From assembly GCA_024762535.1 (NCBI GenBank), contig JANTHG010000001.1, forward strand, positions 211 through 64,210: a DNA stretch of 64,000 bases, written 5' to 3'. A model generated the notes under the pieces. The model did no database searches. It was not told where the DNA came from and saw only the letters and a program-made list of their open reading frames with translations. Positions 312-42,297 of this stretch are shown here, in pieces (the first letter of the stretch is position 1; each line of letters starts with the position of its first letter). Source of the DNA: Calditrichaceae bacterium. Its GTDB lineage: Bacteria; Calditrichota; Calditrichia; Calditrichales; Calditrichaceae. A program made the position numbers and the translations under genes.

Positions 312-623
312 ATGAAAGTACTTGTTCTCAGTCTGTTGTTGTTTGTTGCTATCAGCTGTGTCTCCACCCGCGGGCAGGAAAGCGAACCGGAGCCGCTTGT
401 GGATGTGCAGGTGCAGCAATGGATGAAAACCCACAATGCCAAAAGTGCGGAAAAATTACCGGTGCTCGTTAAAACAGATCGGGCTGTAAGTGAATATCCC
501 TTTTTAAAACTGGTAAAAAACAATTTTTACGGAGGGCATGCCACCTATTCCGACCTTAAAAAGATGATGCAGGACAAACATGTTTTACGGATTTATACCG
601 GTCGTAAAAAACTTCATAAATAA
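312..623 (+). CDS. small secreted lipoprotein resembling a subtilase I9-type propeptide
   Basis: 103-aa ORF with a signal peptide and lipobox-like LLFVAISC. The C-terminal half aligns by eye with the prodomain of the downstream S8 protease (LPVLVKTD vs LHLLVEGD; VLRIYTGRKKLH vs LKRIVQKPKAKLH). Confidence 0.6.
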   Translation: MKVLVLSLLLFVAISCVSTRGQESEPEPLVDVQVQQWMKTHNAKSAEKLPVLVKTDRAVSEYPFLKLVKNNFYGGHATYSDLKKMMQDKHVLRIYTGRKKLHK

Positions 624-633
624 GGAATTTACT

Positions 634-2748
634 ATGCGTTTATTTGTATTGATTATCTTATTTGCCGCCTTATTACAGGCGCAATTTGCAGACCCGTATC
701 TGCAAAAAGAAATCGCCAAATCTCAATTGCAAAAAGGCAGCTCAACCCTGCACCTGCTGGTTGAGGGCGACGCTTCTTTTTTGACTGCTTTGGATCAAAG
801 TGATTTTTCTGTTCAGACCCGCACCGCACACACCGCTACGGTTCTGGTACCGGCTAACCGGTTGCAGGAATTGCTGAATATGAACGGTTTGAAACGTATC
901 GTACAAAAGCCCAAAGCAAAATTACACAATTCCCGGGCCGTTCTTTATCAAAATGTGGATGCCGCTTACGCCAAAGGATACACCGGTTCGGACGTGATTG
1001 TTGGCGTTGTGGATACTGGCATCGATTTTTACAACCCCATGTTTTTAAAAGCTGACGGAACCACGCGTATTCTCTCCATTTGGGACCAAACCATCACCGG
1101 AACCAAACCTTCCGGCTATGATTATGGGGCGGAATATACAGAAGCGCAGATCAATCAGGATTTGGCTTCCGGTACACCTTATTCCATTGTGAAACAAAAA
1201 GATACCGAAGGACACGGTACGCATGTGGCCGGTTCTGCTGCAGGACGGCACTTAACAACTTCGCCGGCAGACACGCTGCACGGCGGATCCATGAATTCCA
1301 ATCTGATCATTGTGAAAACATCCCTCAGCACCTCCGATATTATCGATGGCGTCAGCTATATTTTCAATAAAGCAAACGCTCTCGGGAAACCCTGTGTTGT
1401 AAATTTAAGCGTGGGAAGCCAGTATGGCCCGCATGACGGTACAGACCCCGATGTGCAGTCTATGGATGACTTAACCGGTCCCGGTAAAATCGTGGTGCGT
1501 TCCGCTGGCAATGACGGCGGCTCTGCGGTTCATTATTATGCGGAAAATGTAACATCGTCCATTGCGTTGCAATTCGGCTATGCACAGTATGTTACGCTCT
1601 GGTTAGAAAAAGGCGACGCCATGCAAAGCGCTTCGCTAACCTGGACAGGAGGGTCCATCACCGATGTGCCTAAAAACGGTCACAAAAGCAGTAACGGCAT
1701 CGATGTGTATGTGCAACTGGCAGCCGCTTCCGACAATGGCAAGGAATCGGTAATCATTTTTATGGATAACGACGATCTCAGTTCCACAACCTTTACCCTG
1801 ACACTGAATAACGTTAGCGACGCAAATGGAAACAATAAAATTGCCAGACACGCCTGGAGTGAAAAAGGCACTATGAGTAACCCTTACGGCGCTTTTTCGC
1901 AAGGGAGCTCTTATGGCTCGTCGCATTATCCCTACACGCTGGCAAATGACGCCTGCGGCTCCAAAATCATCGCAGTTGGCGCCTTTAAATCCCGGAAATA
2001 CTGGGACGCCAGCAACGGGAATACCTATGTCTATTCCAATACCGGTGAAGAAGGCGGAATCGGTTCCTTCTCGGCTATTGGCCCTACGGCGAGTGGTGGA
2101 CAAAAACCGGATATCATTGCCGGCGGTACCATTGTACTTTCGGCGCGCAGCACTCAGGCTTCGTACCAGGATGAGTTATTACCGCCTGCGCCCTATACCG
2201 ATCATTTTGCCTATATGCAGGGCACTTCCATGGCTTCTCCGGTAGCGGCCGGCGCCATCGCCCTGCTGCTGGAAAAGCACCCTTCCTGGACGCCCTCCGA
2301 TGTTATGAATTATATAAAAAATAATGCACAGGGAACCAGCCGGCCGGTAGGCACAACGGAGGATCAGGTAAAAGTGAAGGATAATCCCGGTACCTGGGAT
2401 CGTGTTTTTGGCTACGGAGCAATTGATCTGGAACCGGATTTTTCCGGTGTGGGCATCGAAGAGGTAAACGGCTCTTTACCTCAAAAATTCTGTCTGGAAC
2501 AAAACTATCCCAATCCCTTTAACCCTTCTACAGTTATTAGTTATCAGTTGTCAGTTAACAGCAATATTGAATTGACGGTTTATAATACACTGGGCCAAAA
2601 AGTGGCAACGCTGGTTAATCAATGGCAGCAAGCGGGAACCTACTCGGTTAGCTTTGATGCTGCGAACCTTTCCAGCGGGGTTTATTTTTATCGCCTTAAA
2701 ACGTCGGAAGGTTTTGTTGCCGGCAGAAAGATGATTTTGCTGCGTTAA
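634..2748 (+). CDS. S8 family (subtilisin-like) serine protease with T9SS C-terminal sorting domain
   Basis: Catalytic triad motifs are VVDTGID, HGTHVAG and GTSMASP. The signal peptide MRLFVLIILFAALLQAQ starts at ATG 634, so the ORF-track start at 580 overlaps the upstream gene and is unlikely. The C-terminus is [17 protein letters not shown]...GVYFYRL. Confidence 0.9.
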   Translation: MRLFVLIILFAALLQAQFADPYLQKEIAKSQLQKGSSTLHLLVEGDASFLTALDQSDFSVQTRTAHTATVLVPANRLQELLNMNGLKRIVQKPKAKLHNSRAVLYQNVDAAYAKGYTGSDVIVGVVDTGIDFYNPMFLKADGTTRILSIWDQTITGTKPSGYDYGAEYTEAQINQDLASGTPYSIVKQKDTEGHGTHVAGSAAGRHLTTSPADTLHGGSMNSNLIIVKTSLSTSDIIDGVSYIFNKANALGKPCVVNLSVGSQYGPHDGTDPDVQSMDDLTGPGKIVVRSAGNDGGSAVHYYAENVTSSIALQFGYAQYVTLWLEKGDAMQSASLTWTGGSITDVPKNGHKSSNGIDVYVQLAAASDNGKESVIIFMDNDDLSSTTFTLTLNNVSDANGNNKIARHAWSEKGTMSNPYGAFSQGSSYGSSHYPYTLANDACGSKIIAVGAFKSRKYWDASNGNTYVYSNTGEEGGIGSFSAIGPTASGGQKPDIIAGGTIVLSARSTQASYQDELLPPAPYTDHFAYMQGTSMASPVAAGAIALLLEKHPSWTPSDVMNYIKNNAQGTSRPVGTTEDQVKVKDNPGTWDRVFGYGAIDLEPDFSGVGIEEVNGSLPQKFCLEQNYPNPFNPSTVISYQLSVNSNIELTVYNTLGQKVATLVNQWQQAGTYSVSFDAANLSSGVYFYRLKTSEGFVAGRKMILLR

Positions 2749-2756
2749 AAGGGTTT

Positions 2757-5700
2757 TTAAAAAAACGCACGGATTTCCGCCTGCCCGGAATGGATGACAC
2801 GCTTGAATCCGGCTTCATCCCGTCCATTGTAAAACAGGCTGAATACCACGTTTTTCGCTAAGGTATATTCTAAGCGCGCCTGCCAGTTTTGTGAAAGGCC
2901 TTCCTTTTTGCCCCGCGCCATTTCGTAAGGTACGGTGCGGCTATCCGGATTGCTCGTTGGGCTAACCGTTTGAAACTGGTATTGAGCGGTAACCCGTCCG
3001 CTTGCCGGCAAGGCGTAGCTTAGCCGGGTTTTAATGAGAGCGTACCACAGCTTTATGCGATAGGTAAGGGAACGGTTTTCTTCTTTTCCGTATTCGCTTT
3101 CCAGACCCAGTTCCCACTGCTTAAACGGACGGTACGATACATTTTGATCGGCATACCAACCGGCAATATCCCGATTGCGCTGGGGATTGGCTGCACTTTG
3201 GCGTAAAACTGTTTTTAAGCGAAATTCCGTTTGCCCTTTAATCCGGCCGCCCATCCGCCAATTGGCCCGCAGGCCGCTTTCTTCGCTGCGTCCGTCTTCG
3301 TTTTCTCCGGAACTCACAAACTGATTACTGCGGTTCTTGCGGAACCGATAACGCAGTCGGAACGAAAGCGCCCGGTTCCTGCGCATTATATACCAGTCCT
3401 GATTAAACTGCGTAACGCCGCGTACCGTGTAATCGCTTTGAAAATGAGAGAGATCCAGCAGGTACACAGACCAGATATCCGGATCTTTGCTTTCTTCTTC
3501 TACCCTAAAATAGGTTTCGGAACTCAGTTGACGCATCCAACCGGACCACCAACCTGTGGGCTTCCGCCAATAGCGCGCCGGGTCTAATTTCAAACGCAAG
3601 GCCGACTGAACAGTAGTTACCGGTTCATATTTTCCCGAAGGCAGTACAAACAGCATAAAGCGTCCGTCCGGGTCCGGCACGTACTCCTGCAAATCTTCAT
3701 CAAAGCGCAAATTCCCCCGTCCCTGTCCCACTTCGAGATATACTTTTTCTTTTAATGCGGCCTGTTCCGATGAAATCCGGTATTGCAGAGAAAGATTGAC
3801 TGCTTTTTTCCAGGCAGCATGCGCAACATTCAGTTCCGCCAAATCTGTACTGCGGTCGCGCCATACCGTATCCTGAACCGTAGGATCCGTATACTGCAGC
3901 TTTAGTGTATCCTGAGCCACATTTTCAAAGGCAGCCGTAAAATCTTTATTTCGATGCACCAATTGAACATTGGCCGCCGTACCGGTTACACCAAGCAATT
4001 TAAGAGATACCTTATGCGTACCTGTAATCGCCTGGGGAATCAGCTTGTTGCGTTGTTTATAATCATACACGGCGTCTTCGCGATGCTTCCATTCATAAAA
4101 GCCTTCGGCGTATTTCCACTGATACAGATTTAAACGCGCGCCGAAATCGGTAAACGCAAATCCGCTTACCGTACCATTTGCACGGTTGGCGCGGTTTTCT
4201 GACCTAAACGTTAATTGGGGATCCAGCTTCCAAAAGCGGTACCCGGCTTTAGCATTAAACCGTTTCCAAACATTGTTGCTGTTCAGGTCGTTTCGTTCAC
4301 TGTTTATTTCTTCGTATCCGGCGCTTAGGGTGCGTTCCGTATTGCCCAGAGCCGCCTGTACGGCAAAGCGGTTCGAGGCAAACACAGCTCGGTCCAGGCG
4401 TCCGGCATTTGCGGAAATCTGCATCTGTTTGAAAGGAAGATAGGTTAGATTGGCCTGGTAACTTTGTTCGCCGTTTCCGGCTGCATCTGTAACGTTTGTA
4501 TTCCAGTAACGCTGGAAATCCGGCTGCTGATAGCGATCCAGCGCTTTAAAATCGCTTTCCACATAGCGGGCATTGGCATTCATACTTACCCGGCCCAAAT
4601 TCCATGATCCCCATTTAAGCGCTATTTGATCCGCATGTGCTTTTGCCTGCACCGCGCTCCCCTGATTGTCTCCATCGTCCCGCGCGGACAAGGTGTTCTT
4701 ATCGAGGCGTGATAACGCATATTCCACATCCAAACCGCTGTGTACACCGGCTTTCCATTGCAACTGAAGGTTGGCCTGATCCTGGCGGGAAGGTAAGGGA
4801 ATTAAGCGAATGGGCAGGTAGCGCCCCTGCTCTGGCCCGACCCAGCGGTACACACCCAGCCGATCGCGATTATAGGAACCATGGCCGGCGCCCACATCGG
4901 AGAAGACGACCGAGTAATTACCGTTTCCGCTTCCCACATATTTAAAATAGGGTGTGGCAGCGTTTTGCCAAAGGGTATCGCGTTGTATGTAATTTCCGCT
5001 GAAATCTTCTTTTAGGGTTTCACCGGGCAAAAAGGCATCAAGCGGATCATCACCTGCTGATTTCAGAATATTTCGTTCTTCGCTATTGAGGGATTGTGCG
5101 CCGTACAATGTTTGAGCGGGATCGTCTGCTTCGCGGTACACCTTCATACGTAATTTGATTCCCGCTGCTTTCCAGCGCCCGGTGGCTGTGCCGCTGTACA
5201 CATTGCGATTGTAGTTCTGGGTCACCGGGAAATATTCAAAATCCACCTCAATGCGCGAAGAACTGGTGATCAGCCGGCGCGCTGTAAAACGGATTTCACC
5301 GTTTCCGTATTCGATGGTGTAATCATTGCTCTTGCCGCGGGTCATTTTCTGCCCGTCAATCCAAACCTTTTCCGTTCCGGCCAGCACTACAATATTTCGT
5401 TCGCCGTTTTTACCGGTTAAACGGTACGGCCCCTGATTGCCTTCCTGCCCAAGAAAACTGAGATGATTAAAAAAACCGCGTGTGGTGGCCACGGTCGCGG
5501 AAATTTGCTGTTTGCCATATCTGCCCTGCAGAGTAATACCCTGTAATTTGCGGGTCAGCCGGCTAAATTCCGAGTTTTTATATTCCAGATTAAAATCGCC
5601 CACCGTGCCCTGCACATAGGGACTTTTAAATTTCACAAACACTTTGTCCACTTCATTTAAGGTTTGCGTGTTGCCTTCGGGCTGAATGGGAGTGGCTTCG

Positions 5701-6260
5701 TCCGTTAGTGCGGCAACCACTTCCACATTGTCGGTCAGTTTACCGGAAAGTTCCACATTCAATCCGGAGTTCAAAGAAAAATCACGATTGGTTCCCACCT
5801 GCACGCCGCGCATGATGCTGCCGCTGGTTTGCAATCCCGAACCGATATTCTCAAAAGGATTGACAAAATGAATGGCCCGGAAACGGGGGGCCCCGGAAGA
5901 ATCTGAGGTAACGCTGTCTGAAAGTGTATTTTTCGAAAATAAGGTGTAGCGCTGTTTAAAATTAAAGGGTAAGCGGCGGTAGCGAATACGCAGGGTGTCG
6001 TGGGGTTGCAGGGCAAAAAAGAAAATAGTGCGCTCGCCTTTCCAGCGAAAGTCCACTTCTTCTGCAAGTTGGTGCTTATTTCTGAATATTTGCAGGGTCT
6101 GTTTTTGCGGCAAATGGCGGGCCGGTACCTTGTACACGTAGGATGCCGAGGGCACGACAATTAGAGTATCCACCTGCCAACGGTACGGCAGATGCAGGGT
6201 TTGCGCTTGCAGGCAAAAGGATATTAATACCAGGGGAATAATGAGATAGGATTTTTTCAT
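2757..6260 (-). CDS. very large outer-membrane beta-barrel protein, uncharacterised
   Basis: 1167 aa with signal peptide MKKSYLIIPLVLISFCLQAQ. It is rich in alternating aromatic/polar strands (Y/W/R/N/G) and ends with the aromatic C-terminus ...AEIRAFF typical of OMPs. It lies 18 nt downstream of the NHL gene on the same strand. Confidence 0.7.
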   Translation of the reverse strand: MKKSYLIIPLVLISFCLQAQTLHLPYRWQVDTLIVVPSASYVYKVPARHLPQKQTLQIFRNKHQLAEEVDFRWKGERTIFFFALQPHDTLRIRYRRLPFNFKQRYTLFSKNTLSDSVTSDSSGAPRFRAIHFVNPFENIGSGLQTSGSIMRGVQVGTNRDFSLNSGLNVELSGKLTDNVEVVAALTDEATPIQPEGNTQTLNEVDKVFVKFKSPYVQGTVGDFNLEYKNSEFSRLTRKLQGITLQGRYGKQQISATVATTRGFFNHLSFLGQEGNQGPYRLTGKNGERNIVVLAGTEKVWIDGQKMTRGKSNDYTIEYGNGEIRFTARRLITSSSRIEVDFEYFPVTQNYNRNVYSGTATGRWKAAGIKLRMKVYREADDPAQTLYGAQSLNSEERNILKSAGDDPLDAFLPGETLKEDFSGNYIQRDTLWQNAATPYFKYVGSGNGNYSVVFSDVGAGHGSYNRDRLGVYRWVGPEQGRYLPIRLIPLPSRQDQANLQLQWKAGVHSGLDVEYALSRLDKNTLSARDDGDNQGSAVQAKAHADQIALKWGSWNLGRVSMNANARYVESDFKALDRYQQPDFQRYWNTNVTDAAGNGEQSYQANLTYLPFKQMQISANAGRLDRAVFASNRFAVQAALGNTERTLSAGYEEINSERNDLNSNNVWKRFNAKAGYRFWKLDPQLTFRSENRANRANGTVSGFAFTDFGARLNLYQWKYAEGFYEWKHREDAVYDYKQRNKLIPQAITGTHKVSLKLLGVTGTAANVQLVHRNKDFTAAFENVAQDTLKLQYTDPTVQDTVWRDRSTDLAELNVAHAAWKKAVNLSLQYRISSEQAALKEKVYLEVGQGRGNLRFDEDLQEYVPDPDGRFMLFVLPSGKYEPVTTVQSALRLKLDPARYWRKPTGWWSGWMRQLSSETYFRVEEESKDPDIWSVYLLDLSHFQSDYTVRGVTQFNQDWYIMRRNRALSFRLRYRFRKNRSNQFVSSGENEDGRSEESGLRANWRMGGRIKGQTEFRLKTVLRQSAANPQRNRDIAGWYADQNVSYRPFKQWELGLESEYGKEENRSLTYRIKLWYALIKTRLSYALPASGRVTAQYQFQTVSPTSNPDSRTVPYEMARGKKEGLSQNWQARLEYTLAKNVVFSLFYNGRDEAGFKRVIHSGQAEIRAFF

Positions 6261-8290: not shown

Positions 8291-9814
8291 CTATTTCTCA
8301 TCGCTCAGAAGGGTTTTATCTAAGCGATCATACACTTTAAACTGACCGATTTGCAGGGATTCGTCACGTACGAGCCTTATTTTCATCCAGTATTTCCACA
8401 TCAGTTGCAAACGACGGTTATAGCGGCCGGCTGTCATGTATTTATGTACTTCGGGAGTTACATGAATAGTGATACGGCGATCGCCCCGGCTGGCACGATA
8501 CCGTTTAATCCAGCGTTCCAAAGCCGAAACCGATGTGTTCATCGTTGGTACCAATCCCGTTCCGTCGCAGGTGGGGCAAGCTGTGTTAATCGTATGAATA
8601 ACGCTGGGTCGCACCCGCTGGCGGGTCATTTCGATAAGGCCAAAACGGCTGATAGCTTCAATTTTGGTAATGGAACGATCCTTGGCAAATTCTTTTTTCA
8701 GTTCCATAAACACTTTGCGTTTATTGGCTTCTTCCTGCATATCGATAAAATCAATAACAATGAGTCCGCCAAAATCACGAAGCCGGGCCTGACGGGCAAT
8801 TTCCCGCGCGGCTTCCATATTGATTTTAAGAGAATTACTCTCATGATCTTTTTTCCCGATGAACTTTCCACTGTTTACATCTATGGATACCAGCGCTTCG
8901 GTGGGCTCAATAATCAAGGAACCACCATTTTTAAGCCAGACCTTGGAGTAACCCAAATTCTCTATTTCTTTTTCAATATTGTAATGATCAAAAATCGGTT
9001 CTTTACCGTTGTAATACGACACTTTATGGCTCAAATGAGGAGCCACATATTTTACATACGATAATATTTCGCGCATCTGTTTGCGGGAATCCACCACCAC
9101 ATTATCCACTTCGGAAGTAAACAGATCCCGAATGATGCTGGAAGCCATAGCCATATCCTTATGAACCAGTACCGGTGCTTCACTTTTTTTAATATTTTTT
9201 TCAATCTTTTTCCAGGTATCCATCAATTTATTGAGGTCTTTGCGTAATTCGCTTTCCTGTTTTTTTTCAGCCACAGTACGGATAATCACGCCAAAGTGCT
9301 CCGGGATGATTTGCCGGGCAATATCCCGTAAACGTTTCTTCTCTTTGTGATCGGATATTTTGCGGGATATGCCGATATGGCGTTTCCCGGGAATCAGTAC
9401 CATAAATCGTCCCGGCAACGAAAGTTCGGTTGTTACGCGGCAGCCTTTGGTATTGATGGGTTCTTTGATGATTTGTACCAGAATATCCTGGCCTTTTTTA
9501 AGTTTTTTGGCTACGTTAAAGTCTTCTCGGCGCGATGGCTTGCGACCTCCGTTTTCTTCTTCGTAGTCAATAAAATAATCCTGGTAAGTAGCGGATACAT
9601 CCGAAAAATGCAAAAAGGCATTTTGTTCATGGCCGATGTTGATAAACACAGCCTGCATGCCCGGTAGCACCCGGCTTACTTTTCCCTTGTAGATATCGCC
9701 CACCATGCGTTCATATTCGGGACGTTCCACAAATAATTCCACCAACTTAGAATCTTCCAGAATTGCAATCCGGGTTTCCTCGTTTGTTGTGTTAATTACT
9801 ATTTCCTGTTTCAT
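8291..9814 (-). CDS. rng: ribonuclease G/E family endoribonuclease
   Basis: N-terminal S1 domain (GDIYKGKVSRVLPGMQAVFINIG), and the C-terminal CPTCDGTG zinc-link motif typical of Rne/Rng. I prefer the ATG at 9814 (MKQEIVIN), which has GAGGAAA upstream. The ORF track extends to 9859. Confidence 0.9.
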   Translation of the reverse strand: MKQEIVINTTNEETRIAILEDSKLVELFVERPEYERMVGDIYKGKVSRVLPGMQAVFINIGHEQNAFLHFSDVSATYQDYFIDYEEENGGRKPSRREDFNVAKKLKKGQDILVQIIKEPINTKGCRVTTELSLPGRFMVLIPGKRHIGISRKISDHKEKKRLRDIARQIIPEHFGVIIRTVAEKKQESELRKDLNKLMDTWKKIEKNIKKSEAPVLVHKDMAMASSIIRDLFTSEVDNVVVDSRKQMREILSYVKYVAPHLSHKVSYYNGKEPIFDHYNIEKEIENLGYSKVWLKNGGSLIIEPTEALVSIDVNSGKFIGKKDHESNSLKINMEAAREIARQARLRDFGGLIVIDFIDMQEEANKRKVFMELKKEFAKDRSITKIEAISRFGLIEMTRQRVRPSVIHTINTACPTCDGTGLVPTMNTSVSALERWIKRYRASRGDRRITIHVTPEVHKYMTAGRYNRRLQLMWKYWMKIRLVRDESLQIGQFKVYDRLDKTLLSDEK

Positions 9815-9876
9815 TTTTTCTGTTTCCTCGTTGTTAAGCGATCGGGAAAGCAGAAACAAAATGAGGATAAGCCATA

Positions 9877-12495
9877 TTAAGAATGAAGAATTTCGATGGG
9901 CGTCAGCTCTTTGCCGTCGCGGGCAATCAATTGTTTGGAACGATGTACCCTGGCAAAGCGATCGTCAAAGTGCTGATCCTGAAAAAGTTGCTGTAATATT
10001 TCACGTACGCGAACCGTCCGGTTTTCAATGCTCCGGGTTTTAATGGATACGCGATTATGTTCTCTTACAATGGATTCGATATAGGGTCGAATATTTACAT
10101 TTTTATACTTTCCCTTTACCCGGCGTTCCACTTCGATGGCTTCGGAACGTAAAAGTGTTTCTAAGGCTTCATCAAAACCGGAGTTATGGGAATCAAAAAG
10201 GTCCAGTTCAATTTCATACTCGGCTGTGTTGATTGCCGCTGCCAGGGCCTGCGCTTTACTATGTATTTCCTGCACTTCCAGCAGTTGCAGTCCCTCGGGT
10301 AAATACGGATTGATCGAATCGCTTAATAGAGTTACATCGAATGTGGCATTCAATTCCATATCCAAATATTCGGCCTCGCTGGTATATCCCAATGATAAAG
10401 GCGGCCCGAATGATAATTTGGGATGGGGGTTGAAGCCCTGACTGTACAATACTGGGACCTGTGCCTGACGCGCTGCCCGTTCAAAAATACGGATCAGATC
10501 CAAATGGGATAAATAACGCGCATACGCGGTTTTTTGATAACGGATACGCACTTTACGGCTTTCTACCGTTTCTTCCGTCTGCTTTGGTTTGGTGATAGCT
10601 GTAGCGGACGGTATGGGCTCAGGTTCGCTTGATTCGGTTTTTGGCAAATAACAACTGGCAAACGGAGCAAACAGATCTTTTCGCTGAATGCCACAGCCAT
10701 AACAGCTGCCGTTTTTACAATCGATTTTGGTTTGCTCACGAAAGGCTTCTTCCCGTTCTTTGGATAAAAAGCGTTTGCTTACGCCTTTATCGATATGATC
10801 CCAGGGCAAAGGCAGACCCGGATCAATGGCCTGGGCAAAACGGGTAAAGGGATAGCCTGTTTTTTGCGCAGCTTCCTGCCAAATATCCATTTTAAAGTGC
10901 TCGGACCAGCCGTCAAACCGGGCGCCCTGCTTCCAGGCAAGGTAAATGATTTCGGCCAAACGGCGGTCGGCTCTTCCTAAAATGCATTCGAGTAATGAAA
11001 CATCCGGATCACGCCAGGAAAATTTAACCTGACGGTTCCGGCCAAATCGGTTTCTTAAAATCGCAACTTTTTTCTGAAATTCTTCCTTAGTATTTTGCCG
11101 TTCCCATTGAAACGGGGTATGTGCCTTTGGTGAAAACGGAGACACGGATACATTAAACTGAATGCGTCCGTACGCTCTGCTTATTTTCAATACCTCGTCT
11201 ATCAAATCGGCAATGGCTTCTACATCCTCCTCTGTTTCTGTCGGTAACCCGATCATAAAATAAAATTTTAAAACACGCCAGCCGTTTTCCAGCGCAATGC
11301 GCACCGACCGGTATAAATTGTCTGCTGTAATATTTTTGTTAATTACCCGGCGTAACCGTTCACTACCTGCTTCCGGCGCAAAGGTAAAGCCCGACTTACG
11401 AACCGAAGAAGCGAACTCTGCAATTTCCGGCGTAAAACTATCTAAGCGCATGGAAGGAAAGGACACGTTAATATTCTTCCCCTGCAGCGCCTGCCTGCTG
11501 CGTCGCATCAGTCCGTTAAGTCCGGAATAATCCGAAATGGACAGGGATAAAAACGAGACTTCCTGATAACCGGTAGCTTCGAGAGAGCGGTTCATCTGCT
11601 CAATAATTTCTTCCTGCGGCCGCTCCCGTGTGGGGCGGTAAATCATTCCTGCGTTACAATAACGGCAACCTTCGGTGCAGCCGCGCATTACTTCTACGGA
11701 AAGACGGTTATGTGTAACTTCAATAACCGGCACAATCGGTTTTTCCGGATAGTAGGCGCTCTGTAATTGGGGGAGTACCCGGCTTAACACCCGTTCCGGC
11801 GCCAAAGATTCGCTCGCTTTAACGGATTTAATCCACCCATCCGCATCGTACTCGGCCTGATAAAAAACAGGTATGTACACACCTCGTAACTGTGCCAGTT
11901 CCTGTAAAATTTCCCTGCGGGATTTTTTTTGACTGCGCCCCGAGGCCACCACATCAGCCATCTCTACAAAGGCCTCTTCTCCGTCGCCAATCAAAAAGGC
12001 GTCGATAAAGGGCGCCATAGGTTCGGAATTGCAGCTGCACGGCCCGCCTCCGAAAATAAACGGGTCTTTTTCTGTGCGTTCCTTCGCCCAAATCGGAATG
12101 CCCGATAAATCCAGCATATTTAAAATATTGCTATAAGTCAGCTCATATTGCAGAGTAAAACCGATAATATCCAATTCGGCCAGCGGCGTAAAGGATTCCA
12201 GGCTATACAGCGGCAGACCCTCGGCGCGCATCCGTTCTTCCATATCGGTCCAGGGCGCGTACACCCGTTCGGCCCAGATATGGGGCTGACGATTGAGTAC
12301 ATGATACAGAATATCAAAACCAATATAGGACATGGCCAATTCGTACACTTCCGGAAAAGCCAGCCCTACCCGCACGGAAACCGCTTCCGGGTCTTTGCGC
12401 ACCATATTCAGTTCATTGCCGACATAGCGGCCGGGTTTGGTCACCAATGGCAATATGCGCTTATTTAATATATTTTCTATCTTTTTATTTTTCAT
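9877..12495 (-). CDS. radical SAM protein (B12-binding-like N-domain) fused to a DUF2344-like C-terminal domain
   Basis: CTEGCRYC is a CxxxCxxC cluster motif. The C-terminal 230 aa (VRIRYQKTAYARYLSHLDLIRIFERAARQAQVPVLYSQGFNPHPKLSF) matches the DUF2344/TIGR03936 pattern as I recall it. The two parts are joined by a Ser/Glu/Pro/Thr linker. Confidence 0.8.
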   Translation of the reverse strand: MKNKKIENILNKRILPLVTKPGRYVGNELNMVRKDPEAVSVRVGLAFPEVYELAMSYIGFDILYHVLNRQPHIWAERVYAPWTDMEERMRAEGLPLYSLESFTPLAELDIIGFTLQYELTYSNILNMLDLSGIPIWAKERTEKDPFIFGGGPCSCNSEPMAPFIDAFLIGDGEEAFVEMADVVASGRSQKKSRREILQELAQLRGVYIPVFYQAEYDADGWIKSVKASESLAPERVLSRVLPQLQSAYYPEKPIVPVIEVTHNRLSVEVMRGCTEGCRYCNAGMIYRPTRERPQEEIIEQMNRSLEATGYQEVSFLSLSISDYSGLNGLMRRSRQALQGKNINVSFPSMRLDSFTPEIAEFASSVRKSGFTFAPEAGSERLRRVINKNITADNLYRSVRIALENGWRVLKFYFMIGLPTETEEDVEAIADLIDEVLKISRAYGRIQFNVSVSPFSPKAHTPFQWERQNTKEEFQKKVAILRNRFGRNRQVKFSWRDPDVSLLECILGRADRRLAEIIYLAWKQGARFDGWSEHFKMDIWQEAAQKTGYPFTRFAQAIDPGLPLPWDHIDKGVSKRFLSKEREEAFREQTKIDCKNGSCYGCGIQRKDLFAPFASCYLPKTESSEPEPIPSATAITKPKQTEETVESRKVRIRYQKTAYARYLSHLDLIRIFERAARQAQVPVLYSQGFNPHPKLSFGPPLSLGYTSEAEYLDMELNATFDVTLLSDSINPYLPEGLQLLEVQEIHSKAQALAAAINTAEYEIELDLFDSHNSGFDEALETLLRSEAIEVERRVKGKYKNVNIRPYIESIVREHNRVSIKTRSIENRTVRVREILQQLFQDQHFDDRFARVHRSKQLIARDGKELTPIEILHS

Positions 12496-12607: not shown

Positions 12608-13048
12608 TTAATGCATCAGATTTTGTAACATGGCAGTTACTTTTTCAACATTGGCATGGGTATCGGGAATAATAACGACAGCATCGTCTCCGGCTACGGT
12701 TCCGATAATATGCTCGTCTTTCAGTTTGTCAAGATAAATTCCTACTCCCTGCGCACGGCCTGGCATGGTTCGAATCACAACGGTGGACTCATTATGCAGG
12801 ATACTGATAATTTCCATTCCGATAATTTGTTTAATAGCCCGGGAATTATCGTCTTTGTGGAAAACATATTTAAACCCTTCACCGTCCGGTACACGTACAA
12901 TGCCGATTTCGTGTAAATCGCGCGAGAGCGTTGCCTGTGTAGTGTCAAATCCGTATTCCTGTAGTTTGGCCAATAAGTCTTCCTGGCTGGCAATTTTTTC
13001 CGAAATCACAATTTCTTTAATCTTTGCCTGGCGTTGTTTCTTATTCAT
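12608..13048 (-). CDS. argR: arginine repressor ArgR
   Basis: 146 aa. The winged-helix N-terminus is RQAKIKEIV...IASQEDLLAKLQEYGFDTTQATLSRDLHEIG. The C-terminal oligomerisation domain contains GTVAGDD. Confidence 0.9.
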   Translation of the reverse strand: MNKKQRQAKIKEIVISEKIASQEDLLAKLQEYGFDTTQATLSRDLHEIGIVRVPDGEGFKYVFHKDDNSRAIKQIIGMEIISILHNESTVVIRTMPGRAQGVGIYLDKLKDEHIIGTVAGDDAVVIIPDTHANVEKVTAMLQNLMH

Positions 13049-13244: not shown

Positions 13245-14600
13245 GTGTCCAGATTAATGGTATCTATTTCAGGTTTGCGGGGCGAAGTGGGCAGCACACT
13301 CACGCCGCAGGTTATTCAAAAATATACGGCTGCATTCGCCAAATATGTGCAGGGTGGAAAAGTGGTTTTAGGGCGGGATTCCCGGGTATCCGGACCGTTT
13401 GTCAATGATTTGGTTAAAGGAACCCTCGTGGCATCCGGCTGTGAAGTGATTGAAATTGGTATTGTGCCAACGCCAACAGTTCAGCTGGAAATTGAGCACC
13501 ATCAGGCAGCCGGTGGTATTGCTATCACAGCCAGTCACAATCCCATTCAGTGGAACGGACTCAAATTTATGGGCAGCGATGGCCGGTTTTTAAATCCCGA
13601 ACAAGCCGGGAAAGTGTATGCCATGGCAGATGCCGGAGAACAGGCCTACAAAGAATGGTCGGAATTAGGCGCTGTTACGATCGATTTCGGTGCTATAGAC
13701 CGGCATATTGAAAAAGTAAAAAACATTTCCTTTGTGGATGTGGAAGCTATTCGCAAGCGAAAGTTTAAAGTTGCGGTGGATACGGTCAATGGCGCAGGCG
13801 GTGCGATTATTCCTAAATTATTAAAAGAACTGGGCTGCGAGGTCTTTGCCATCAATCAGGAAACCAGCGGACGTTTTGCCCACACACCGGAACCGTTGCC
13901 GGAGAACTTAGCGCAATTGGGCGATGCCGTTAAAGCGAACAACGCTGACCTCGGTTTTGCAGTGGACCCGGACGTGGACCGCTGCGCTATTGTGGACGAA
14001 ACCGGAAGGCCTTTGGGTGAAGAATACACGCTGGCCATTGCCACGAAGCTGGTGTTCAGCAAAGAGATGGGACGCATGGCTGTGAACATGTCCACCTCCC
14101 GCGCTTCGGAAGATATCGCCAAATATTACAATTGTATGTTTGTGCGCAGTAAAGTAGGCGAAATAAATGTAGCGGAAAAAATGAAGGAAATCGACGCCCT
14201 GATTGGCGGCGAAGGCAACGGAGGCGTCATTCTGCCGGAAGTACACCTTGGCAGGGACGCGCCGGTGGCGGTTGCGCTTACCTTACAGATGCTGCTGGAA
14301 CAGGGCGGAACCATCAGCGCGCTAAAGGCTTCTTTGCCGCAGTACGAAATGGTGAAGCTGAAAGTAAATATTGGAAATATGCAGCCGGATAAGCTTTTGG
14401 CAGCAATGGCCGAAACCTATAAGGACCAGCCCATCGATACTCTGGATGGCTTGAAGATTGATTTTAACAATAGTTGGGTACATTTGCGGAAATCCAACAC
14501 CGAACCGATTATCCGCGTGATTGCCGAAGGGCCAACCGAAGCGGAAGCGCGCAGTCTGGCCGAACGCTTTATGGATGAATTAACCAGGGTAAACGGATGA
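13245..14600 (+). CDS. alpha-D-phosphohexomutase superfamily enzyme (PGM/PMM-type; probable phosphopentomutase by context)
   Basis: Phosphoserine loop TASHNP, metal loop FAVDPDVDRC and sugar loop GGEGNGG. The start is either GTG 13245 (AGGAGG 4 nt upstream) or ATG 13257. The ORF-track start at 13158 adds a non-conserved leader. Confidence 0.85.
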   Translation: MSRLMVSISGLRGEVGSTLTPQVIQKYTAAFAKYVQGGKVVLGRDSRVSGPFVNDLVKGTLVASGCEVIEIGIVPTPTVQLEIEHHQAAGGIAITASHNPIQWNGLKFMGSDGRFLNPEQAGKVYAMADAGEQAYKEWSELGAVTIDFGAIDRHIEKVKNISFVDVEAIRKRKFKVAVDTVNGAGGAIIPKLLKELGCEVFAINQETSGRFAHTPEPLPENLAQLGDAVKANNADLGFAVDPDVDRCAIVDETGRPLGEEYTLAIATKLVFSKEMGRMAVNMSTSRASEDIAKYYNCMFVRSKVGEINVAEKMKEIDALIGGEGNGGVILPEVHLGRDAPVAVALTLQMLLEQGGTISALKASLPQYEMVKLKVNIGNMQPDKLLAAMAETYKDQPIDTLDGLKIDFNNSWVHLRKSNTEPIIRVIAEGPTEAEARSLAERFMDELTRVNG

Positions 14601-14887
14601 TTATCTGCAATGTAATCGGTGATGTGGTTTCCACTGTAAAGAATGAACATTTTACAGGCAAGAAACTTCTTATCGTGCAGCCGCTGAATCTGGACAATGA
14701 ACCGGATGGTGAAGCCTTTCTGGCTATAGACACAGTGCAGGCCGGCAAAGGCGACCGGGTACTGGTGATGCGCGAAGGCGGTTCGGCGCGTATTATTTTT
14801 GAAGATGAAAACATCCCGGTACAGGCGGTAATTACCGCGATTGTGGATGAAGTCCGTTTTTTGAAAAACGAAAATCTTTCTAACTAA
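14597..14887 (+). CDS. EutN/CcmL family bacterial microcompartment vertex (BMC-P) protein
   Basis: The 96-aa protein is colinear with E. coli EutN (GDVVSTV, KKLLIV, EPDGE, AIDTVQAGKGDRVLV, GGSAR, AIVDEV). The ATGA overlap with the mutase stop suggests translational coupling. Confidence 0.88.
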   Translation: MIICNVIGDVVSTVKNEHFTGKKLLIVQPLNLDNEPDGEAFLAIDTVQAGKGDRVLVMREGGSARIIFEDENIPVQAVITAIVDEVRFLKNENLSN

Positions 14888-14899
14888 CAGGATACATGT

Positions 14900-15733
14900 A
14901 TGGCAGCAATTACATCACAAGATATCGAACACATTATATCTCAGGTTATTGCGGAAAAAAATATTGATACCGCAGGGTATCGCCCCTTTTCATACGATGC
15001 CGCCAACGACCTGCTTTCTTTTGGCGCCAGCCGCATTGGTGCGGTAGCGCCATCCTGTCCACCCAAATACGAACTGGCCAAATGGATTGACCATACGTTA
15101 CTTAAACCGGACGCTACCCAGGCGGATATTGAAGCGGTTTGCTCGGATGCCCGTGAACATGGATTCGCTTCGGTGTGCATCAATCCCACCTGGGTACCAC
15201 TAGCCTACAAAATGCTGCGTGGATACGAATCGCGCGTGTGCACGGTAATCGGTTTTCCGCTGGGTGCGACCTTCCCGGAGGTCAAAGCAGCTGAAGCGCG
15301 TTTGGCTGTGGAACAGGGCGCGGATGAGGTAGATATGGTCATCAATATTGGCGCGCTCAAATCCGGCGACTACCAATTGGTGGAACACGACATCCGTTCT
15401 GTTGTTCGCGCGGCAGGTCGGCGCATTGTAAAGGTAATTTTAGAAACCTGCCTGCTAACCGACGAAGAAAAAGTGCAGGCTTCGGCTATTTCCAAAAAAG
15501 CTGGCGCCAATTTTGTGAAAACTTCCACCGGATTTTCCACAGGCGGCGCTACCGTCAAAGATGTGGCCCTTATGCGTAAAGCTGTTGGCTCGGAGATGGG
15601 TGTTAAAGCCAGCGGTGGTGTACGCACTTATGAAGAAGCCTGTAAAATGGTTGAAGCAGGCGCAACACGCATAGGCGCCAGCGCCAGTGTAGCCATTGTG
15701 GGCAACGGCAGCGCTTCCGGCGACGGATATTAA
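14900..15733 (+). CDS. deoC: deoxyribose-phosphate aldolase with about 55-aa N-terminal extension
   Basis: The core begins at [15 protein letters not shown]. The Schiff-base lysine lies in FVKTSTGF, and [10 protein letters not shown] is near the C-terminus. AGGA lies 7 nt upstream of the ATG. Confidence 0.9.
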
Positions 15734-17099: not shown

Positions 17100-17891
17100 A
17101 TGGGCCGGCTAACCAAACGACAGCAAAAGCGAATTAATTACTTCCTGCGTGAAAAAATGGAACGCCGGGAAAAGCACGACATTATTCACCAGGGCAATGT
17201 GCCGAAGTTCATTGAACGGCATATGCCCTACATCCGCAAACTGGCCCGGAATTTAGACCAAATTCTAATCGTAAGTTCGGTAGTGTCTCCCGAAATCAAA
17301 ACCGGGCTTATCGATCGCTTCCTTATTCTCGGTGAAATCGAACATATCCCCTGTACCATTTGCATTAACAAAACCGACCTTTTGGATGACCCGGCTCCTG
17401 CACAGGAAATTGCCGAAATGTATCGCAAAATCGGTTATTCGGTTCTGCTTACTTCTGCCAAATCCGGAGAAGGACTTACAGAATTACATGACGCTCTTCA
17501 AAATAAGCGCACGGCTCTGGCCGGTCATTCCGGAGTGGGCAAAAGCAGTTTGCTTAATGCCATTGCACCGGACCTGGAAATTTCGGTGAATGAGGTCAGC
17601 CGGGTGAATAATAAAGGGAAGCACACCACAACCAAAGTCCGTTTGTACCAGTTGGATGACACAACCGATGTACTCGATTTGCCCGGTGTTAAAATTATTG
17701 ATTTCATTGATATTCATCGTGATGAAGCGCGCTTTTATTTCAGAGAATTTGAAAGTTTTGCCGAAGAATGCAAATTCCGTGACTGCCTGCATGTAAGTGA
17801 GACGCCCTGCGGTGTAAAATCGGCGGTAGAGCGTGGCGCTATTCATCCCCTGCGCTATCAGTCGTATTTAAATTTTATTGAGACTCTCTAG
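17100..17891 (+). CDS. rsgA: ribosome small-subunit-dependent GTPase A, short form lacking the N-terminal OB fold
   Basis: Circularly permuted GTPase motifs in the order INKTDL (G4), then GHSGVGKSSLLN (G1), then DLPG (G3). The C-terminal zinc knuckle is CKFRDCLHVSETPCGV. Only about 50 aa precede NLDQILIV. Confidence 0.85.
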   Translation: MGRLTKRQQKRINYFLREKMERREKHDIIHQGNVPKFIERHMPYIRKLARNLDQILIVSSVVSPEIKTGLIDRFLILGEIEHIPCTICINKTDLLDDPAPAQEIAEMYRKIGYSVLLTSAKSGEGLTELHDALQNKRTALAGHSGVGKSSLLNAIAPDLEISVNEVSRVNNKGKHTTTKVRLYQLDDTTDVLDLPGVKIIDFIDIHRDEARFYFREFESFAEECKFRDCLHVSETPCGVKSAVERGAIHPLRYQSYLNFIETL

Positions 17892-26430: not shown

Positions 26431-26513
26431 GCGAGGATGGCGGAATTGGTAGACGCGCCAGATTTAGGATCTGGTGTCCTTAGGACGTGGGAGTTCAAGT
26501 CTCCCTCCTCGTA
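26431..26513 (+). tRNA. tRNA-Leu (anticodon TAG)
   Basis: Acceptor stem gcgagga/tcctcgt, D-loop GGAATTGGTAGAC and anticodon stem-loop CCAGA-TTTAGGA-TCTGG. A long variable arm (GTCCTTAGGAC) and T-arm GGGAGTTCAAGTCTCCC are present. CCA is not encoded. Confidence 0.9.
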
Positions 26514-26543: not shown

Positions 26544-26639
26544 ATATTTTTTTATTAAGAATTCTCTGCAACTCGCCGACAACTATATCATAAATTTCAT
26601 ATTTATTTGAATAATTCCGTTTTATGTAAGGAGTTTATT

Positions 26640-28877
26640 ATGAATAAATTGTTAGTTACCTTCGCAATACTAACGACTCTGGTCGTTTCAACATTTGCGC
26701 AAATACCACGTGGCGCTTCTGATGAGCCTACCAGACAATCCTCAAAGTTTTTTAAATCAGGAGAGCTTTTTTCTCCAGAGGATGGTGTTTTTTATTATTC
26801 AACCACCACGTATACGTTTTCAGATCTGGTTGTTTTTAGCTATTTTGATGAAACAGATTTCTATATCCTAAATCAGAATGGTGAAAAAATTGACAGCGTT
26901 TCCCTGAATGAGGATCAATTTAAGGTTTTTCCTACAGGAGAAGGTATTTTTTCGGTAATTAGTACAAAGTCATTTACTGTTTTAGTTGGTGATCCGGTAA
27001 GCAGTAATGTGTTGGGTTATTTTGCAGTAGATGAAGCGGGTAGTCCCATTTCCACTAGATTAAATACGTATATGCCCTCTTCTTATACAACCGGGGAGCA
27101 TTTTATAATTTTTGCTTACCATGACGGGACCGAATTTGAGATCAGGAATTTACAGGATAACACAATAATATCTGCGGGAATTATAAACACCGGGGAACAT
27201 TTTCAGTTGGATGGCGCCAATAGTACCTTTATTGGTGTAAAAGCTAATAAACCCGTATCAGCTTTAAGTTACACAGATCAGGGCTATTATATTCCGGCTA
27301 CGAATGGTACTTTTGCCGGTACCCACTTTTATGGTTTTTCCGGTTATGTGGGGGGGTGGCCAAATGGTATCGTTATAACGGGTTATCAGGATTCAACCAA
27401 TTATACCATTTGTAATTCAGAAACCGGTGCCCTGTTAGATAGTGGTAAAGTAAATAAAGGCCAAACAATAAAACTAACAACTTCTACCGATACGTATTTC
27501 GAAGTTGTTACGGATAATCCTGTAACGGTTTCTAACATCCCTTATGCTGCTTATTCGGACAGTTACTATTATATGGTTCGCCAAATAGATGAAAGCGGAC
27601 TCGGTATAGGAACTAATTTTTATACACCGGTTATTTCCGGGCAACTTGACGTTTTTTCCTTTGACGATGCCAATGAGATTACGATTTATTCTCTGACGTA
27701 TGCAGATACAATCTGGTCCGGTATCTTAGATGAAAAGGATAATTACCATTTTGATTGTAATTATGGTATTTACCACATTTCTTCTACAAAAAACATTTCA
27801 GTCATTTCATCGTGGGGTGGTGCCTGGGGAGCCGATTTTGTGCCGTTGAATTTCAGCCTTGGATTACCGGATTTGTCAATCTCTTCACAAGATATTTTAT
27901 TTGACCCGGAACCAGAAACATTACACGGGGGCGATCCTGTCACATTAAAGGTTAAAGTACACAACTGGGGGTATATAACAGCACCGAATGTGGAACTACA
28001 GTTCTATGATGGTAATCCGGATGGGGGACAAGCCATTTCAGAAGTACTTGTTGCAGATTCTATTTCTGCAGGTTCTGAAGTAGAATTTGAATATAATTGG
28101 ATTATTCCGGAGTATGCTGAATATCACTCCATTTACGTGGTAGTGGATCAGAAAGATATGATTAGAGAATCGAATGAATCTAATAACATGGCTTCGAAAT
28201 CTTTAATTCCAAATGATGATTTATTGCCACCCTTAAGCACGGTAGTGGATGCCCCTACCGCTGTTCCGGTGGATGAACAAAATAAACCCGAATTTAGTCA
28301 ATTTAAGGTAATGCTTGATCTTTTCAATACAGGAACGGTTGCTGCCACTAATGTTCGGGCAACATTAATGCTACCTACTCATCTAAGTTTACAGGATACC
28401 GCTCTGCGTTCTATTGTTTGGGATGAAATGCAACCCAATGCACATATAGATTCCAATTGGACGGTTACCATTGATAGTGTTCCTCCGGCAGATGCTTTTT
28501 TCTATTCTATAATGGTTACAGCTGACAGTGTAATGCCCAAAAACATTGAACGAATGTTGCTGATAAAACGTCCGGTAGGAATTAATGGCGGCACACACTT
28601 CGGGGAAATTCCATCGGAGTTTGGGGTATCTCAAAATTATCCCAACCCATTTAACCCCGTTACAAAAATCAGCTATCAGCTTCCGGTTGCCAGTCAAGTC
28701 CGTTTAACCGTATTTAATGCTTTGGGTCAAAAGGTTCATGACCTGATAAATACAAAACAACGGGCAGGGGAGTACTCTGTGTTTTTTAAAGCTGGTAATC
28801 TTTCAAGTGGGATTTATTATTATCGTTTAAAGGCCGGGGATAATGTTTTTATACGAAAAATGATTTTACTCAAATAA
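26640..28877 (+). CDS. secreted CARDB-domain protein with T9SS C-terminal sorting domain
   Basis: AGGAG lies upstream of ATG 26640, which opens signal peptide [21 protein letters not shown]. The CARDB-like segment is [11 protein letters not shown]...[21 protein letters not shown]...ESNESNN. The C-terminus is [17 protein letters not shown]...GIYYYRL. Confidence 0.85.
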
Positions 28878-41088: not shown

Positions 41089-42297
41089 ATGTCGGATTTT
41101 TTTCAAAATGGCAGTATTACCACGTTGCATAATTTACGTAAATTCCCTTTGGAGGAGCAGGAAAGTACGATTCTGGAACACTCAGGGAAAAATCCGGTTT
41201 CCCTTTTACTGCCCTCGCTCATTTCGGAGCTGGACGGCCCGGCGCTCCCTAAAATCTTGGATGAAGTAGCTAAAGTTCCCTATCTGAGTGAAATCATCAT
41301 TGGTTTGGATGGTGCCGATAAAAAACAATTTGAAAAAGCTAAAAAATATTTTGACCGCCTGCCGCAGCGTCATCGGATTTTATGGCAGCGTTCGCCTAAA
41401 ATTCAGGAACTGTATCAGGAACTGGCAGAAAAAAAATTATTTATTGGCAGCGAGGGGAAGGGCCGCAATGTGTGGATGAGCCTCGGTTATTTGCTGGCCA
41501 GTAATAAAAGCCGGGTTATTGCCATCCATGATTGTGATATTTTAACCTACAACCGGCAGCTTCTGGCGCGCCTCGTATTTCCGCTGACCATGCCTACCTC
41601 CAAATTCCGTTTTTGCAAGGGTTATTACAGCCGTACATCAAACCAATTGAATGGCCGTGTGGCGCGTTTGTTCATTACGCCTCTTATTCGTACACTTAAA
41701 CGTATTTTAGGTCCTGTGGATTATCTTGATTTTATTGATTCCTTCCGCTATCCTCTGGCCGGTGAAATGGCCCTGCTGCGTGGTGTGGCCTATCAATTAC
41801 GTTTGCCAACGGACTGGGGTCTGGAAATCGGCACTTTGAATGAGATCTACCGTAATTACGCTAAAAATCAGATGTGTCAGGTGGATGTGCTGGATAATTA
41901 TGACCATAAACATCAAAAATTGTCTGAAAATAATCCCAATGCCGGATTATCCAAAATGTCTATTGATATTGCCAAATCGTTTTACCGGATGCTGGCCAGT
42001 ATGGGTGTGGTTTTCAGTGACCAGTTCTTCCGTACCATTAAAGCCACTTATCTGCGTACAGCCCTGGATTTTGTAGATAAATATCAGGCAGATGCCAGTA
42101 TTAACGGTCTTGCTTATGACCGTCACAGCGAAGAAAAAGCCATCGAAGTGTTTCTGCGTAGTATCATTATTTCGGGCGACCAGTTTCTTGCAAATCCAAT
42201 GGAATTGCCCATGATTCCCAGTTGGAACCGCATTCAGTCGGCTCTGCCGGATTTCATGGACGGTTTGTACGACATTGTTGAAAATGAAAACAGGTAA
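41089..42297 (+). CDS. glucosyl-3-phosphoglycerate synthase-like glycosyltransferase
   Basis: The N-terminus FFQNGSITTLHNL and the IAIHDCDI (DxD) motif resemble GpgS/MpgS-type enzymes as I recall them. The gene lies 12 nt downstream of the cognate-type phosphatase. Confidence 0.65.
   Translation: MSDFFQNGSITTLHNLRKFPLEEQESTILEHSGKNPVSLLLPSLISELDGPALPKILDEVAKVPYLSEIIIGLDGADKKQFEKAKKYFDRLPQRHRILWQRSPKIQELYQELAEKKLFIGSEGKGRNVWMSLGYLLASNKSRVIAIHDCDILTYNRQLLARLVFPLTMPTSKFRFCKGYYSRTSNQLNGRVARLFITPLIRTLKRILGPVDYLDFIDSFRYPLAGEMALLRGVAYQLRLPTDWGLEIGTLNEIYRNYAKNQMCQVDVLDNYDHKHQKLSENNPNAGLSKMSIDIAKSFYRMLASMGVVFSDQFFRTIKATYLRTALDFVDKYQADASINGLAYDRHSEEKAIEVFLRSIIISGDQFLANPMELPMIPSWNRIQSALPDFMDGLYDIVENENR

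Follow-up and report, generated by a model that had tools for sequence, protein, structure and literature searches.

A lone BMC-P vertex gene beside an N-terminally extended deoxyribose-5-phosphate aldolase in a Calditrichaceae bacterium, a probable part of an SPU-like metabolosome with scattered genes

Introduction

Bacterial microcompartments (BMCs) whose genes are not gathered in one locus form a group of fragmented types, whose components are spread over as many as six sites in the genome (Sutter et al. 2021, PMC8217296). One of these types, FRAG3, is found mostly in Calditrichaeota, with one member each in the candidate division 'KB1' (presumably KSB1) and in LCP-89 (PMC8217296). Its shell set comprises a triplet of BMC-P as well as two BMC-H, of which one bears a C-terminal extension of ~50 residues, and its description places a DeoC/LacD aldolase beside a BMC-P (PMC8217296, Suppl. 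Data 2). Searches with encapsulation-peptide (EP) hidden Markov models in the genomes of fragmented types were negative (PMC8217296). Here we analyze a 64-kb stretch of contig JANTHG010000001.1 of a Calditrichaceae bacterium (referred to as the window), in which a gene for a vertex shell protein of the EutN/CcmL family (BMC-P) lies directly upstream of a gene for deoxyribose-5-phosphate aldolase (DERA). We consider it likely that this BMC-P is a functional vertex protein of a metabolosome resembling the sugar-phosphate-utilising (SPU) type, with genes scattered over the chromosome, and that it belongs to the FRAG3 type of Calditrichota.

Complete SPU loci (Axen 2014; Sutter 2021; Dwyer 2024) combine genes for shell hexamers, an aldehyde dehydrogenase (AldDH) and DERA, as the first-pass annotation of this DNA had correctly stated. 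All SPU DERAs possess an N-terminal helix plus two strands, which non-BMC DERAs lack, and this extension is frequently truncated by automatic annotation (Dwyer, Sutter, Kerfeld 2024, PMC11585597). Based on a genome-wide reconstruction, a 2025 preprint (PMC12747264) already proposed a route from nucleoside phosphorylase via phosphodeoxyribomutase to deoxyribose-5-phosphate into SPU-type compartments. Within the literature library searched, we found no paper that describes nucleoside phosphorylase and mutase genes in one operon with BMC-P. In Caldithrix abyssi, a BMC locus with AldDH, PTA and PduS has been reported (Axen 2014, PMC4207490).

Results and Discussion

The 96-residue open reading frame encodes a full-length BMC-P

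The open reading frame (ORF) begins with ATG and ends with a TAA stop at 14885-14887; its translation and the motifs quoted in the first-pass annotation are present as given there. The proposed EutN/CcmL identity held against Pfam, since the protein matches PF03319 (EutN_CcmL) over profile positions 1-83 of 83 with 96.6 bits (cut-off 25; E 1.2e-27). Sequence matches in the PDB include GrpN (4I7A), EutN (2HD3), CcmL and the shell BMC-P of Haliangium, HO (5V74). An AlphaFold2 (AF2) model built on 23 homologues reached a pLDDT of 83, and Foldseek aligned it with TM scores of 0.76-0.82 (E 2e-8) to GrpN 4I7A, CcmL 2QW7/4JVZ, EutN 2HD3 and HO BMC-P 5V74. The canonical BMC-P fold and motifs are fully kept. 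Sequence and modelled fold thus confirm a full-length BMC-P, for which a role as a vertex-capping pentamer is predicted. The protein scored far below the cut-offs of all three NCBIfam equivalogs CcmL, EutN and CsoS4, which places it outside these named subfamilies; with these scores, and with no genes for RuBisCO, carbonic anhydrase or EutBC, a function in carboxysomes or in ethanolamine use was rejected.

We searched all six-frame segments of the window using phmmer --max. Queries with PduA, EutM and CcmK2 gave no match in these segments, and queries with Atribacterial BMC-H, BMC-T, AldDH, PduS, RpiB and PduL matched only the window BMC-P and DERA. Greedy selection gave 49 ORFs with a minimum length of 90 residues, and in the 47 that were scanned with Pfam only housekeeping families were found. 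These scans uphold the earlier statement that the 64 kb contain neither BMC-H/T nor an aldehyde dehydrogenase. The vertex gene had been called an orphan; no other shell gene lies in the window, and the first-pass annotation had missed that this configuration was already catalogued as FRAG3 (PMC8217296).

The adjacent aldolase carries an SPU-type N-terminal extension

The window DERA matches TIGR00126 with 301 bits, and the alignment begins at residue 58. At E <= 1e-20 it matched 27 solved DERAs, mostly from about query residue 50-63, with a weaker match to 1N7K from residue 35. Because the solved DERAs mostly align from this point, we regard the first 57 residues as an extension. Within it are a helix-like segment of 15 residues and the segment 'FGASRIGA'. 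The extension can be aligned with those of DERAs from complete SPU loci (L051, L081, L093, L098, L012) as well as with those of all loci in which mutase, BMC-P and DERA genes follow each other. When DERA is read from the earliest ATG in its frame, the extension is present in all relatives; the KSB1 gene calls of 222 residues are an example of the truncation by automatic annotation mentioned above. The common pattern consists of an N-terminal helix-like 'x-I-E-x-I-I-x-x-V-I', a variable, often Cys-rich stretch and a 'G-A-x-R-V/I-G' segment. Nonsynonymous differences in the extension (pN 0.12-0.25) compared with synonymous ones (pS 0.62-0.90) indicate purifying selection. Homology of the extension suggests that the window DERA is of the BMC-associated kind and would be encapsulated.

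The Cys-rich stretch differs between lineages. KSB1-like contigs and several of the complete SPU loci show a CxxC...CxxC arrangement (e.g. 'CNWCWVCPDC'; L049 1787-1975; L016, L051, L081, L093). In Calditrichota, one CxxC is left in most copies, and the window copy (14900-15070) lacks the motif altogether. Possibly the motif forms a metal-binding knuckle which the window lineage can dispense with.

The window BMC-P is orthologous to the paralogue that precedes RpiB and DERA in complete SPU loci

In Caldatribacteriaceae (Atribacterota; L012 and L013), a complete SPU locus has the order DeoR / BMC-H, BMC-P, BMC-P, PduS, BMC-T, AldDH, BMC-P, BMC-P, RpiB, DERA, PTAC. The window BMC-P scores 94.6 bits against the Atribacterial paralogue preceding RpiB-DERA, compared with 36-44 bits against the other three paralogues. 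Complete SPU loci of Caldatribacteriaceae MAGs and of metagenome contigs contain its orthologue. The orthologue occupies the position just before RpiB-DERA not only in L012/L013 but also in L051 and on contig P0112, the latter without PTAC and with additional BMC-Tdp and TIM genes. The synteny with SPU loci that the first-pass annotation had proposed to examine is thus found in complete loci, and it implies that the adjacency of BMC-P and a following DERA was inherited from a canonical SPU locus.

Hexamer genes accompany the same operon type in relatives

Two contigs that carry the genes for mutase, BMC-P, DERA and the pyrimidine-nucleoside phosphorylase PyNP in this order, L049 (JGI Ga0114931_10000730) and L109 (Logan SRR15505517_3712), also carry shell hexamer genes. 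In both, two BMC-H genes are located 3-4.5 kb from the operon, one plain and one coding for a conserved C-terminal extension of ~50 residues (BMC-H-ext). The pair lies in a conserved housekeeping context of PBP1A and LpxH-like genes followed by ispE, spoVG, prs, rplY and pth, and the same context was found in L104-L108. These two contigs settle that hexamer genes co-occur with this operon type. The ispE-spoVG-prs cluster that hosts the pair in relatives is absent from the window, so that no argument from an 'empty site' is possible.

Protein searches placed no BMC-H in the genome of the window itself. The Atribacterial BMC-H as query retrieved only Atribacterota- and Spirochaetota-like matches, and BMC-H-ext of L049 recovered its own family, whose members P0343, P0255, P0258 and P0286 lie on contigs of other assemblies. 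One family member is annotated from a Calditrichaeota metagenome-assembled genome (MAG; P0369, RMF66140.1); among the cluster entries labelled Calditrichaeota, none was tied to a MAG that bears the operon. BMC-H-ext, with its conserved C-terminal domain (~45-50 residues, 'LPVRQLRRLARDxPDFPIQGREISKANKxLLLEKF'), always stands beside a plain BMC-H in the housekeeping cluster (L049 7130-7882; L104-L109). Profile searches of Pfam and PDB with this domain gave nothing significant; for two of the 18 members, a resemblance to Rho_N reached only E 0.12.

The gene block is conserved and under purifying selection

The first-pass annotation had named absence or poor conservation in close relatives as grounds for doubting the gene. 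We found the block of mutase, BMC-P, DERA and PyNP, in part with RsgA, across lineages; the surrounding genes differ. The NCBI MAG GCA_024763395.1 and two Logan assemblies contain an identical BMC-P with the same neighbours. A contig search with the window BMC-P identified three Calditrichota loci, the nearest loci belonged to Calditrichaceae or Calditrichota, and the named homologues came from Calditrichota, Caldithrix and KSB1. BMC-P identity within the block is 64-81% in MAGs of Calditrichota (including Calditrichaceae) and 60% in those of KSB1, and the block also occurs in many JGI metagenome contigs. PyNP is kept downstream of DERA in the Calditrichota, KSB1 and metagenome loci. In L005-L009, which are Calditrichota loci, RsgA comes after PyNP, and in KSB1-like loci it does not.

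Our orthologue set comprised 90 non-redundant BMC-P loci, 78 of which had sequence room downstream of BMC-P. In 57 of these 78, the next gene is DERA (52) or RpiB (5). The mutase is found directly upstream in 27 of the 90 loci, distributed over several lineages. Both mutase and PyNP occur in 17 loci among those listed, a number that includes near-duplicates; PyNP is missing from some others (L018/L019). Against Calditrichota orthologues, pN of BMC-P is 0.13-0.25, synonymous sites are saturated or nearly so, and the ratio of nonsynonymous to synonymous rates (dN/dS), where computable, is 0.05-0.21. By this measure, the window BMC-P is under purifying selection, and the gene is neither missing from relatives nor weakly conserved in them.

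Single loci depart from the common arrangement. In the Calditrichota MAG locus L006, two small ORFs that by eye resemble a Phd/YefM–YoeB toxin-antitoxin pair lie between mutase and BMC-P (9449-9957), and in the Logan contig L109 a DUF3800 gene is inserted between BMC-P and DERA (2272-3042). A Marinimicrobia orthologue with 58% identity (L014 2558-2845, L015 1590-1877) stands alone: the 10 kb around it contain neither DERA nor mutase nor any shell gene, which is consistent with the description of FRAG4.

The operon encodes a predicted route from deoxynucleosides to the aldolase

The vertex gene is tightly packed into its operon (Table 1). Its start codon and the TGA stop of the mutase overlap in the sequence ATGA (14597-14600), and 12 nt separate it from the ATG of DERA (14900); on the plus strand, the order is mutase, BMC-P, DERA, PyNP, rsgA. 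Overlap, spacing and order had all been read correctly in the first-pass annotation, and only the start of the mutase has to be revised: instead of ATG 13158, GTG 13245 is most likely, where the gene calls and all orthologues begin. No terminator-like site was detected on the plus strand between 13245 and 17891, and an Rfam scan revealed no RNA element close to the operon. The gene for RsgA starts 3 nt past PyNP and is probably co-transcribed, its product being outside the pathway.

Table 1. Features of the operon in the window
Feature	Position	Strand	Evidence
PGM/PMM-family (alpha-D-phosphohexomutase superfamily) mutase, 451 aa	13245..14600	+	Pfam PGM_PMM_I-IV; TIGR03990
BMC-P (EutN/CcmL) pentameric vertex shell protein (predicted role), 96 aa	14597..14887	+	PF03319, PDB matches, AF2/Foldseek, dN/dS, SPU paralogue score
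Deoxyribose-5-phosphate aldolase (DERA), 277 aa, predicted encapsulated signature enzyme	14900..15733	+	TIGR00126
57-residue N-terminal extension of DERA, putative encapsulation/docking element	14900..15070	+	Alignment with complete-SPU DERA extensions
Pyrimidine-nucleoside (thymidine) phosphorylase PyNP, 438 aa	15780..17096	+	TIGR02644 561 bits; Pfam Glycos_trans_3N, Glycos_transf_3, PYNP_C
RsgA ribosome-biogenesis GTPase	17100..17891	+	TIGR00157, 239 bits

We propose the following working model. The BMC-P gene would be co-transcribed with that of the signature cargo enzyme DERA, which bears an extension of the encapsulated type, and the same operon would provide two cytosolic feeder enzymes. 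PyNP would phosphorolyse (deoxy)pyrimidine nucleosides to deoxyribose-1-phosphate, which the PGM/PMM-type mutase would convert to deoxyribose-5-phosphate. This product would enter a shell made from genes encoded elsewhere, in which DERA, recruited via its N-terminal extension, would split it into glyceraldehyde-3-phosphate and acetaldehyde, so that the aldehyde would stay confined; the window-encoded BMC-P would close the vertices of the shell. A plain BMC-H, a C-extended BMC-H, a further two BMC-P and whatever enzyme consumes the aldehyde, if any, would then be encoded elsewhere in the genome. PyNP is presumed to act on deoxynucleosides in the cytosol, and the mutase is presumed to be cytosolic because it has no extension relative to its homologues.

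The substrate of the mutase needs particular consideration. The protein scores 524 bits against NCBIfam TIGR03990 (archaeal-type GlmM; curated cut-off 439), and its nearest solved structures are two phospho-sugar mutases from archaea, 1WQA and 2F7L, along with the 'phosphopentomutase' 9IX8. A proven phosphopentomutase of Thermococcus kodakarensis (T. kodakarensis) belongs to the same superfamily (PMC11641776; 9IX8). From this family similarity and from the operon context, we infer that the window mutase is a phosphopentomutase that converts deoxyribose-1-phosphate to deoxyribose-5-phosphate. The name GlmM given by automatic annotation is probably a mis-naming.

The locus has the traits of FRAG3 and differs from complete SPU loci

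The window locus shares with FRAG3 the phylum, a DeoC-family aldolase that adjoins BMC-P (here at 12 nt) and the separation of this pair from other shell genes, none of which lies within the 64 kb; moreover, two BMC-H, one of them with a C-terminal extension, were recovered in relatives. The published description covers the aldolase only, whereas the window adds the SPU-type extension of DERA and co-operonic PyNP and PGM/PMM-type mutase genes. With complete SPU loci such as L012, it has in common the orthologous BMC-P, the order of BMC-P and then DERA, the homologous DERA extension and deoxyribose-5-phosphate as the predicted substrate. It differs from them in lacking BMC-H/T, AldDH, RpiB, PduS and PTAC and in having one BMC-P rather than three or more. 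Among the features that define an SPU main locus, a DERA (PF01791) with a BMC-type N-terminal extension is present; AldDH (PF00171), a curation criterion of Dwyer 2024, RpiB (PF02502), which stands beside DERA in most subtypes, and shell genes other than the one BMC-P are absent. Conversely, PyNP and mutase are found here, neither of which is described as a component of SPU loci in Dwyer 2024 (PMC11585597). The locus is therefore not an SPU main locus and shows those FRAG3 traits that could be tested. Since a pairing of BMC-P and DERA away from other shell genes is already catalogued, it is a further example of FRAG3 and not a new kind of system.

Two more distant arrangements are also comparable. 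Classical deo operons, such as deoC-deoA-deoB-deoD of E. coli, occur in other bacteria as well. As in these, the steps of nucleoside phosphorylase, phosphopentomutase and DERA would all be encoded in one operon of the window; in contrast to them, its mutase is of the archaeal PGM/PMM type and not the metalloenzyme DeoB of the alkaline-phosphatase superfamily, a shell vertex gene is inserted, DERA is extended and DeoD is missing. In the satellite locus of HO type I (Sutter 2021, PMC8217296), vertex genes and an aldolase are likewise split from the main shell locus, but the aldolase is of class II (pfam00596) and not DERA, there are two BMC-P instead of one, and the hosts are Myxococcota.

Weighing the evidence

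Several observations weigh against an SPU-like metabolosome with scattered genes. The window contains no BMC-H/T, AldDH, RpiB, PduS or PduL, and hexamers and a shell in the window organism are expected from relatives and from the literature; L049 and L109 are not Calditrichaceae, with mutase and PyNP ~50% and BMC-P 54-56% identical to those of the window. FRAG3 lists no AldDH, leaving unaccounted for the step that would justify the sequestration of acetaldehyde (PMC8217296). The mutase lies above the cut-off for archaeal-type GlmM, and its pentose specificity is contextual. Regarding DERA, a single-sequence AF2 model had a pLDDT of 44, too poor to confirm the helix-plus-strands architecture, the hydrophobic moment (muH) of the putative encapsulation helix (0.42) equals the median of N-termini in the window, and the CxxC motifs of most relatives are lost from the extension.

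A rival explanation is that BMC-P no longer caps a shell in this organism and works with DERA alone in a genome without hexamer genes, for instance by binding the extension of DERA as a chaperone or pentameric scaffold. The lack of shell hexamer genes in 64 kb, an adjacency of BMC-P and DERA that survives the dispersal of everything else, and the entirely solitary Marinimicrobia orthologue agree with such a use, and Dwyer 2024 (PMC11585597) call the reason for multiple BMC-P paralogues unknown. However, two BMC-H and three BMC-P are present in FRAG3 genomes of this phylum (PMC8217296), a Calditrichaeota BMC-H-ext protein exists (P0369), operon and BMC-H pair share a contig in relatives, and the window protein retains the full canonical fold and motifs; we regard a shell-less role as quite improbable. 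The first-pass annotation had left the choice between such a pentamer and a dispersed SPU-type satellite fed from nucleosides, and SPU orthology, the DERA extension, BMC-H in relatives and the FRAG3 precedent favour the satellite. A similarly low probability applies to the pathway being misread, in which case the mutase would be GlmM or a PGM/PMM enzyme that merely neighbours BMC-P and DERA, and the compartment would not be fed with deoxynucleosides via the operon. The TIGR03990 score, best solved matches to generic phospho-sugar mutases and the loci without PyNP (L018/L019) point in this direction. Yet mutase, DERA and nucleoside phosphorylase together follow the well-established deoB-deoC-deoA logic of the classical deo operon, the mutase stop overlaps the BMC-P start, and the mutase recurs directly upstream of BMC-P orthologues in 27 loci and together with PyNP in 17 of those listed (some near-duplicates). 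The superfamily, moreover, includes the proven T. kodakarensis enzyme (PMC11641776). Finally, the locus resembles an SPU fragment and its DERA extension has lost the Cys motif of relatives, as might be seen in a decaying, functionless leftover of a lost SPU locus. The ORF, however, is intact and of full length, dN/dS is low (0.05-0.21) at synonymous sites near or at saturation, and position and translational coupling are kept over phylum-level distances. The probability of decay is close to negligible, and we rejected a pseudogene or remnant on grounds of selection and conservation.

Within the favoured explanation, a vertex protein of an SPU-like metabolosome of the FRAG3 type, this BMC-P paralogue could be a cargo-specific vertex that serves as the docking partner of the DERA extension. 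Such a role would explain why the pair stays adjacent and tightly packed from complete SPU loci to fragmented genomes and why at least three BMC-P paralogues are retained in SPU-like organelles; nevertheless, we consider it rather unlikely. In a weaker variant, the operon may mark deoxynucleosides, and not free DNA-derived deoxyribose-5-phosphate, as the physiological feed of FRAG3/SPU.

The locus leaves the current picture of microcompartments unchanged and provides a clean, conserved case of a probable bacterial organelle with scattered genes. The sole shell gene left beside the signature enzyme appears to be co-transcribed with both enzymes that would make the predicted substrate from deoxynucleosides. 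This supports the proposed SPU-like role in scavenging nucleic-acid breakdown products for FRAG3, a type so far without assigned function or encapsulation signal. Three aspects are mildly new: a FRAG3 DERA bears an SPU-type extension even though negative EP searches had been reported for the fragmented types, the predicted feeder enzymes share an operon with the vertex gene, and one specific BMC-P paralogue stays with DERA after fragmentation of the locus. Parts that can be tested are the DERA N-terminal extension, this BMC-P paralogue and the PGM/PMM-type mutase that is likely mis-named GlmM.

Other features of the window

A gene for an ArgR-family repressor (12608-13048, minus strand) is divergent from the operon in the window species. 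In other Calditrichota it does not adjoin the operon (other genes lie upstream in L007), and it is therefore probably not the operon's regulator. Four long ORFs had no Pfam family at the thresholds used: 2757-6260 (minus strand), 30213-32216 (plus), 41089-42297 (plus) and 48471-49832 (minus), with 1166, 667, 402 and 452 residues, respectively. A tRNA gene is located at 26431-26513. Two secreted proteins, a subtilase (580-2748, plus strand) and a CARDB-domain protein (26607-28877, plus strand), have C-terminal sorting domains of type IX secretion, which are typical of bacteria of the FCB group, to which Calditrichota are related.

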